Below the pieces are notes generated by a model. That model ran no database searches. It saw nothing but the letters and a program-made list of their open reading frames with translations, and was not told where the DNA came from. From assembly GCA_001793895.1 (NCBI GenBank), contig MGIT01000001.1, forward strand, positions 106,508 to 170,507: a stretch of 64,000 bases of DNA, given 5' to 3'. Positions 7,612-7,921 of the stretch are shown here, piece after piece. The DNA comes from Candidatus Wolfebacteria bacterium RIFOXYB1_FULL_54_12. Lineage in GTDB: Bacteria > Patescibacteriota > Minisyncoccia > UBA6257 > UBA9933. Numbering within the stretch: position 1 is the first letter of the stretch; each line of letters opens with the position of its first letter. The position numbers and the translations under genes are program-made.

Positions 7612-7650
7612 TGTTTATTCAAATCCCTTTCGGTGCCGCGGGAGGGAGTT
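7612..7650. repeat. Partial duplicate of the tRNA-Phe 3' end plus its 3' flank
   Basis: 37/39 nt identical to 7831-7869 (ttattcaaatccctttcggtgccgcgggagggagttg). Confidence 0.7.
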
Positions 7651-7848
7651 GCCTACAAGTCTCGCTTCGCCGCCGCTCAGCGAGCTCGCAGGCCGCCCCT
7701 CGCGATGTGCCCTGCTGGGCCGCATATCGCTGCGGTCTTAAACTCCCCACGCGGGCAAAGCAGTTTGCCCGCTCCACGGCACCAACCAGATAAAAATAAA
7801 AAACATACTCCTCACAAGTATGTCTTTTATTTTATTCAAATCCCTTTC

Positions 7849-7921
7849 GGTGCCGCGGGAGGGAGTTGAACCCCCGACGCTTGCCTCTTCAGGGCAACGC
7901 TCTACCGCTGAGCTACCGCGG
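7849..7921 (-). tRNA. tRNA-Phe (anticodon GAA)
   Basis: Reverse complement GCCGCGGTAGCTCAGCGGTAGAGCGTTGCCCTGAAGAGGCAAGCGTCGGGGGTTCAACTCCCTCCCGCGGCA. Cloverleaf. Anticodon loop CTGAAGA. Confidence 0.85.

Follow-up and report, generated by a model that had tools for sequence, protein, structure and literature searches.

The tRNA-Phe locus and its direct repeat

On the minus strand of the window (the whole 64,000-nucleotide stretch of contig MGIT01000001.1 analysed here), a sigma-70-like promoter is followed by a tRNA-Phe gene, its trailer, an A/U-rich UGUGAGG hairpin with a U-tract, a segment of 68% GC, a second copy of the tRNA-Phe 3' end and a second UGUGAGG hairpin (Table 1). The next ORF downstream (7473-6835) encodes 212 aa, contains no Pfam domain and has only six homologue clusters, all of which are metagenomic.

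Table 1. Features of the tRNA-Phe locus, numbered by position in the window
Feature	Positions	Strand	Description
Sigma-70-like promoter	7950-7977	minus	TTGAAA-16-TATAAT, upstream of tRNA-Phe; 11/12 consensus matches
tRNA-Phe(GAA)	7849-7922	minus	ARAGORN and Rfam RF00005, 68.5 bits; intronless in the window
Repeat copy 1	7825-7868	minus	Last 20 nt of tRNA-Phe (7849-7868) and 24-nt trailer with GGGAUUUGA
Hairpin 1	7793-7833	minus	Stem CAUACU/AGUAUG, loop UGUGAGG, A-tract/U-tract extension; 17 consecutive pairs
Structured ncRNA	7630-7785	minus	156 nt, five-way junction; from fold, RNAalifold, covariance model and covariation
P1 helix			12 bp; the acceptor-stem register GCCGUGG/CCGCGGC extended by 5 bp that involve A73, C74, C75 and two bases of the trailer
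P1 5' strand	7774-7785	minus	Closing helix of the ncRNA
P1 3' strand	7630-7641	minus	Supplied by repeat copy 2
H1	7751-7772	minus	9 bp, loop CUGC
H2	7732-7750	minus	4 bp, loop GGAGUUNAAGA of 11 nt (12 nt in L016)
H3	7702-7730	minus	3 + 8 bp, loop AGCA/AGUA
H4	7642-7701	minus	Long arm; T stem GAGGG/CCCUC at its base; the T loop carries an inserted hairpin immediately before C56
Repeat copy 2	7608-7651	minus	3' side of H4 (T-stem 3' strand), whole P1 3' strand, ncRNA trailer
Hairpin 2	7582-7612	minus	Stem GGAUUC/GAACCC, loop UGUGAGG, U7 tail

The 3' end of tRNA-Phe is indeed duplicated, as an earlier note on this DNA had claimed. The two copies form a direct repeat of 44 nt with 95% identity and 2 mismatches, spaced 217 nt from start to start. 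The 64 kb contain two occurrences, and no more, of each half of the repeat, as against 0.00-0.02 expected from shuffles, and the repeat search at the locus returned this single direct-repeat family. The earlier note had described a 37-nt repeat with 2 mismatches that recurs 220 bp downstream across an interval of about 185 bp. The repeat and its downstream copy stand, but the details change: the 37-mer is exact, as identity is complete over 38 nt (7614-7651 equals 7831-7868), both mismatches (7612/7613 versus 7829/7830) fall within the 6-nt extension, and the space between the copies measures 173 nt (7652-7824).

Read in the tRNA-Phe direction, the repeat runs from T-loop residue C56 to C75 (20 nt) and on through the 24-nt trailer. 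Copy 2 lies downstream of tRNA-Phe, on the same strand and in the gene's own orientation. The locus thus displays the pattern that the Islander criterion describes, namely an intact tDNA and, 217 nt away, a displaced downstream 3' fragment of the same orientation. The distal copy does not belong to a full tRNA, in agreement with the earlier note: ARAGORN and Rfam gave no tRNA-model match there, and these tRNA models did not find the 5' two-thirds of a recognisable tRNA before it. Both small hairpins previously pointed out in the interval are also present, catactcctcacaagtatg being the hairpin after tRNA-Phe and gggcaaagcagtttgccc being helix H1 of the RNA described below.

A structured RNA between the two copies

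The interval holds only two ORFs, of 60 and 78 aa, both on the plus strand. A protein-coding function was rejected because a 1-nt indel between the window and a relative of 92% identity breaks these plus-strand ORFs. The GC-rich segment starts with UUGGUGCCGUGGAG, the complement of CUCCCGCGGCACC(G/A)A in the repeat. Folding of 7800-7570 gave a minimum free energy (MFE) of -115 kcal/mol, compared with -79.8 +/- 5.0 kcal/mol for dinucleotide shuffles (z = -7.08).

Relatives of the locus were gathered from the contigs of homologues of the 212-aa ORF and by interior-pattern scans of GTDB genomes and JGI metagenomes; their loci are referred to by L numbers. Five full-length variants were obtained, from four Candidatus Wolfebacteria-type contigs and one other CPR-like contig. 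Four variants entered the RNAalifold analysis, and five distinct variants entered the covariance-model alignment. In this alignment of five sequences, four of them from one clade and all fitted to the model, 98.3% of pair cells are standard over 59 pairs, and 19 pairs have changed on both sides. Controls with slid partners were 37-46% paired, with 1-4 double-changed pairs, and none of 500 shuffles reached any of the covariation measures of the five-variant alignment. Moreover, the covariance model (R1) scored 156-187 bits across members on the sense strand (174.8 bits in the window), whereas on the antisense strand it found no match in the window and at most 25 bits in relatives. The excess of the sense over the antisense score fits the conserved G-U pairs. 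These data show a conserved fold that is specific to one strand and supported by compensatory changes, as is required of a structured ncRNA. Searches with R1 of the window and the fetched loci found one ncRNA per locus and no further copy in the window.

The stems vary, but the loops (CUGC, GGAGUUNAAGA, AGCA/AGUA and GAGCGRCGGCGA) and the lower half of H4 are the same in all variants. Such constancy of the loops next to stems that covary freely suggests a specific partner, either a protein or another RNA. As an alternative to the base of H4, the H2 segment GGGGAGUU could also pair with the complementary AACUCCCU in the repeat; all of the positions concerned are invariant. In the window, H3 carries an extra G and an A replacing G (7721 and 7708) relative to all relatives, which produces a bulge and a C-A mismatch; these defects may reflect incipient decay, variation that is tolerated or an error in the sequence.

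No match for the ncRNA came near the gathering threshold among the 4227 models of Rfam 15, overlapping noise reaching at most 23 bits, and for the window region Rfam gave no family for it even at E = 10. Neither tRNA (RF00005) nor tmRNA (RF00023) was called at 7630-7785; only 7849-7922 was called as tRNA. SRP RNA, 6S RNA, RNase P RNA, Y RNA, tmRNA and ribozymes were rejected, Rfam being blank both at gathering and at permissive E for the window region and for L016, the non-Wolfebacteria variant.

Rather than an empty scar, the repeated tail of tRNA-Phe probably represents the 3'-terminal part of a conserved and tightly folded RNA gene of ~155 nt. Its product would be a stable transcript, with the predicted ends given in Table 1.

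Resemblance to tRNA-Phe and the shared 3' module

In its modelled fold the ncRNA looks tRNA-derived, with P1 as a lengthened tRNA-Phe acceptor stem and the base of H4 as the T stem. H1-H3 occupy the places of the D arm, the anticodon arm and the variable arm, and the order of the arms is that of a class-II tRNA. The ncRNA is identical to tRNA-Phe from C56 through the trailer, and the next hairpin agrees with that of tRNA-Phe in loop and geometry. The identity would stop so abruptly at C56, on its 5' side, because the insertion in H4 ends the homology there. The H2 loop ends with YUKAAGA, which reads CUGAAGA in L011, as in the tRNA-Phe anticodon loop, and UUGAAGA in L016. This likeness to an anticodon loop may hint at tRNA ancestry, but it covers 7 nt only and could be a chance match. 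P1 pairs through residues 73-75 and leaves no free NCCA, which argues against aminoacylation.

At the Wolfebacteria loci, NNNN-GGGAUUUGA comes after each copy of the tRNA end, and a hairpin stands about 10 nt further on. The loop of this hairpin is always UGUGAGG and its stems are fully compensated (CAUACU/AGUAUG, GGAUUC/GAAYCC, GACCCU/AGGGUC, CAGUCU/AGGCUG and GCAUGCU/AGCAUGU). Such hairpins follow the tRNA-Phe end in the window and in L001, L009-L013, L023, L025 and L033. Neither the window nor the other loci compared contain the combination of trailer motif and UGUGAGG hairpin at any other place; a genome-wide type of terminator was therefore rejected, the hairpin being confined to the tRNA-Phe 3' module. 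Since GGGAUUUGA and a UGUGAGG hairpin follow every copy, the duplicated unit is the whole 3' module of tRNA-Phe and extends beyond the 44 nt. The terminator-containing tandem duplication that the earlier note offered as its alternative thus fits better than an att scar, as the unit reaches the UGUGAGG hairpin.

Within each genome the two copies have the same trailer variant (GAAAGGG in the window and L001, AAUAGGG in L009 and AAUAUGGG in L013). Lineage-specific trailers common to both copies are read as gene conversion between them. The hairpins can be classed as cassettes, whose order at positions 1|2 is A|B in the window, A|C in L001, B|A in L009 and D|C in L013; such swapping between positions is not predicted by simple duplication and conversion. 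The independent metagenomic contigs of L005, L006, L007, L008, L009 and L033 begin exactly inside the module of tRNA end and hairpin, which suggests assembly breaks at the repeat, or population heterogeneity.

As for transcription, the promoter upstream of tRNA-Phe would be the start of a co-transcript of tRNA-Phe and the ncRNA. Judged by its sequence, hairpin 1 resembles a weak terminator between the two, and hairpin 2 resembles an intrinsic terminator at the end of the unit; the terminator scan reported hairpin 2 on the plus strand, and the site is bidirectional. Neither a promoter scan nor inspection by eye revealed a comparable promoter between tRNA and ncRNA in any lineage, and a promoter belonging to the ncRNA itself was accordingly rejected. 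In L016, the P1 5' strand directly adjoins the U-tract of the hairpin of the upstream tmRNA gene. Co-transcription is favoured by this adjacency and by the lack of promoter-like spacing before the ncRNA in every lineage. Upstream of the tRNA-Phe promoter, the A/T-rich spacer towards tRNA-Pro (window 7990-8022) contains GTTATTGGTTAT twice, 21 nt apart, and similar AATAAC-type repeats were seen in L018, L020 and L022.

States of the tRNA-Phe site in relatives

A near-identical locus is present in MGIW01000006 (RIFOXYD12_FULL_48_21) and a more divergent one in LCHW01000001 (GW2011_GWE2_44_13). The full ncRNA stands at tRNA-Phe in the window, in the L001/L012 type, in L009 and in the L013/L017 type. 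Only the 5' part is found in L011 (through H2, then unrelated sequence; 40 bits) and in L023 (the first ~35 nt). The ncRNA is cleanly absent from L010 and L025, in which tRNA-Phe is followed by one trailer, one hairpin and then the ORF promoter, and the hairpin of L010 is of the type that comes after the ncRNA in L013 and L001. Together with L024, a tmRNA locus, five sampled lineages have lost or truncated the ncRNA (L010, L011, L023, L024 and L025), and this repeated loss indicates that it is dispensable. Among contigs with C39-peptidase homologues, L027-L030 and L032 are not syntenic or lack the region, and L033 starts inside the hairpin.

The site varies in two further ways. In L001 (3092-3346), L012, L013 and L017-L023, the anticodon loop of tRNA-Phe(GAA) is split by a group I intron (Rfam RF00028, 61.3 bits), which the gene lacks in the window, L010, L011 and L025; the gene that bears the repeat is thus polymorphic for the intron. 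Between the ncRNA terminator and the ORF promoter of L001 (3673-3899) lies a 227-bp insertion with 21-nt terminal inverted repeats (CTAACGCACATTTTGGACAAA / TTTGTCCAAAATGCGCGTTAG). By its sequence, this insertion looks MITE-like, and it is absent from the counterpart in the window at about 7500-7580.

A homologous RNA downstream of tmRNA

On the JGI contig of L016, a homologous ncRNA interior (156 bits) is located directly downstream of a tmRNA gene (RF00023, 66 bits). Its changes in H1, H3 and upper H4 are fully compensated. The last 20 nt of this ncRNA, CAACUCCCUCCAUCUCCACA, reproduce the 3' end of tmRNA, starting in the T loop, and the 5' strand of the ncRNA, UGUGUGGAGAU, pairs with the end copied from tmRNA. 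The comparison of the window with L016 therefore shows that the 3' strands of P1 and of the H4 base are the 3' end of the upstream gene, whichever it is, and that the 5' strand follows. A neighbouring protein of L016 has its best matches in Patescibacteria, and from these homologues we infer a CPR-like host; tblastn found no matches between L016 and the compared Wolfebacteria loci. In L024, a relative of this tmRNA-linked locus (about 6225-6285, minus strand, versus 7920-8110, minus strand, in L016), the interior and the second copy are missing. All that survives is the antisense arm, which together with the tmRNA end makes up an inverted repeat of 18 bp that flanks the terminator hairpin. At tRNA-Phe, too, it is the 5' side that the remnants (L011 and L023) have kept.

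Discussion

Our preferred interpretation, held with moderate confidence, is a tRNA-derived small RNA gene that shares the 3' module of the gene upstream of it and is co-transcribed with that gene, maintained by conversion and lost by deletion. The locus would then be a two-gene RNA unit on the minus strand, consisting of tRNA-Phe, a hairpin, the structured RNA of ~155 nt and another hairpin. The RNA may have originated by tandem duplication of the tRNA unit. It would be transcribed by read-through from the tRNA-Phe promoter, probably as a co-transcript, from which it would be cut out. Gene conversion from one copy to the other probably maintains the identity of the shared 3' module (tRNA end, trailer and hairpin), and recombination from copy to copy, or other deletions, would remove the ncRNA in some lineages. 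Duplication alone leaves the interior that follows tmRNA unexplained; relocation, conversion of the end and a templated change of the 5' strand are needed in addition. We speculate that templated quasi-palindrome correction restored the complementarity of the P1 5' strand in the tmRNA lineage.

The evidence does not support the main proposal of the earlier note, an att scar of a lost element: what lies between the copies is a conserved structured RNA with compensatory base changes, and neither a gene nor an integrase is present there. When the tRNA-Phe site was compared across relatives as that note had advised, no larger element was seen in ~10 lineages, nor was an autonomous integrase-bearing element at the same att site. 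The 173-nt interval contains no tyrosine-integrase gene. A search with Pfam found no integrase domain in the seven flanking ORFs tested in the window or the seven tested in L016. The domains seen in the two sets are PEP synthase, C39 peptidase, hemerythrin, PAS/GAF sensor, DnaB, DoxX and FtsX-like; an integrase or transposase next door was rejected on this basis, there being no recombinase domain among these ORFs. A phage or plasmid origin was rejected as well, since IMG/VR (two pattern scans), GenBank phages and PLSDB plasmids (blastn) all lacked copies of the ncRNA. Elsewhere in the window, beside tRNA-Ala, a 40%-GC stretch contains an 806-aa ORF (19409-21829, minus strand) with MFS-like, spermidine-synthase-like and M28 peptidase domains, and no integrase was found near it.

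Presence and absence of the unit between relatives is observed (L010 and L025 are empty), and the unit measures 217 bp and has no gene besides the ncRNA. It might be regarded as a miniature, non-autonomous, CIME-like element composed of hairpin, RNA body and core, and inserted into the T loop by a tyrosine integrase acting in trans. The 44-nt copies would then be attL and attR, and the RNA gene would span attP and be intact whether excised or integrated. We consider this unlikely, though several features speak for it. The identity block begins in the T loop and runs through the 3' end, reportedly one of the sublocations used by tDNA integrases. Homologous interiors stand at two different tDNAs and each ends in the 3' end of that gene, the empty sites are clean, with the L010 hairpin of the post-ncRNA type, and hairpin cassettes have been exchanged between the two positions. 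Moreover, tRNA and tmRNA genes are the usual integrase targets, tmRNA being the most enriched (Islander, PMC4383910). However, no integrase lies in or beside the unit at any locus, the phage and plasmid collections hold no copy, and there is one copy per locus or window. The unit also occupies the same site across the clade, over 62-92% identity of the neighbouring protein and with decayed remnants, which fits old vertical inheritance. In addition, the element-side and host-side hairpins belong to one motif family, which is not expected of independent attP and attB arms, and the complementarity of the P1 5' strand to each target is left unexplained.

Less probable still is a purely cis-acting 3' external spacer that yields no trans product and serves only to control how tRNA-Phe or tmRNA is terminated, processed or matured at the 3' end, for instance as a source of decoy pairing for a downstream antisense segment. 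Copy 1, the real tRNA 3' end, and copy 2 match the 5' strand of P1 and its leader equally well; in L016 the arm matches the tmRNA end over 17 bp and the copy over 9 bp, and L024 has kept the antisense arm alone, as its 18-bp inverted repeat. Moreover, partners are swapped in the MFE structure of the whole co-transcript (7575-7922, minus strand; -172 kcal/mol, z = -8.6): the distal copy is paired to the 5' acceptor strand of the tRNA, and copy 1, across hairpin 1, to the 5' strand of the ncRNA. The duplication thus creates a potential misfolding or regulatory alternative. Nevertheless, the four internal helices, the invariant loops and the invariant lower H4 exceed the needs of a decoy, and tRNA-Phe does without the structure in L010 and L025.

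It is comparably doubtful that the ncRNA represents a new class of tiny mobile or hitch-hiking RNA genes of CPR bacteria, which would join tRNA and tmRNA 3' ends from the T loop and have their 5' strand templated to the joined end, either through a T-loop integrase in trans or through RNA- or ssDNA-guided or template-switch attachment. Were this true, the complementarity of P1 would be part of targeting or maintenance, beyond structural closure.

Least credible of all is an inert relic under no selection, a decayed tRNA duplicate or integration scar, in favour of which one may cite the five lineages with loss or truncation and the two H3 defects of the window copy, but which is at odds with the 19 double-changed pairs and 98% standard pairs while a neighbouring protein has diverged to 62%, with the second host and site, with the fold z-score of -7 and with invariant loops beside variable stems, and the many differences among the five variants contradict recent transfers of a single sequence.

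In the very small genomes of CPR/Patescibacteria, we know of few described ncRNAs beyond the universal ones. If the tRNA-derived RNA gene that we prefer is real, it adds a structured RNA family that shows strong covariation and conserved loops and has no Rfam 15 match. Recruitment of a tRNA 3' module (end, trailer and terminator) would then suggest itself as a recurrent route to new stable RNAs. It also follows that an integration scar should not automatically be assumed wherever a short 3' piece of a tDNA is found a few hundred bases behind the gene.

Comparison with known systems

The reuse of an acceptor-stem and T-stem module within a larger non-tRNA RNA is known from the tRNA-like domain of tmRNA and from the bacterial Y-RNA-like YrlA. 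The ncRNA resembles both in this respect and differs from their tRNA-like domains by the lack of a T loop (a hairpin is inserted there), of a free NCCA and of an Rfam clan match. Islands and prophages integrated into tDNAs likewise leave a same-orientation repeat of the tDNA 3' end downstream of an intact gene, use tRNA and tmRNA genes as targets and have empty sites in relatives (PMC4383910). They differ from the present locus in that its interval is gene-less and 173 nt long, its conservation is that of an RNA structure, and the repeat is part of this structure.

The closest analogue is RtT RNA, the product of rttR at tyrT-tyrV of E. coli (RF00391), a small RNA in a tRNA operon that is apparently tRNA-derived and shares its 3' end and trailer with the tRNA. 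At tyrT-tyrV of E. coli NC_000913, each of the 178-bp units downstream of tRNA-Tyr has the last 19 nt of the tRNA and its trailer at its end; the annotated RttR starts immediately behind the tRNA and reaches to the following copy of the tRNA 3' end, and in the predicted fold the internal GGGGAAGGAU of the unit pairs with the copied AUCCUUCCCC. The same arrangement is found in the window, where the ncRNA lies directly downstream of the tRNA and ends with the tRNA 3' end and trailer. The two RNAs have no sequence similarity, and RF00391 gave no match in window 7400-8000 (E up to 10) or across L016 (E up to 1). The two systems differ in several ways: RttR comprises about three tandem units and the tRNA-Phe locus one, RttR overlaps a small ORF (tpr) and the ncRNA does not, and the ncRNA, unlike RttR, is also found after a tmRNA gene. 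Moreover, RttR is not significantly structured (z = -0.8), whereas the ncRNA is a covarying five-way junction (z = -7). The ncRNA is therefore not a member of RF00391 but a new and better-structured variant of such tRNA-operon RNAs and, if our interpretation is true, a second and much better structured example of the long-unexplained RtT/tyrT-repeat arrangement of E. coli.
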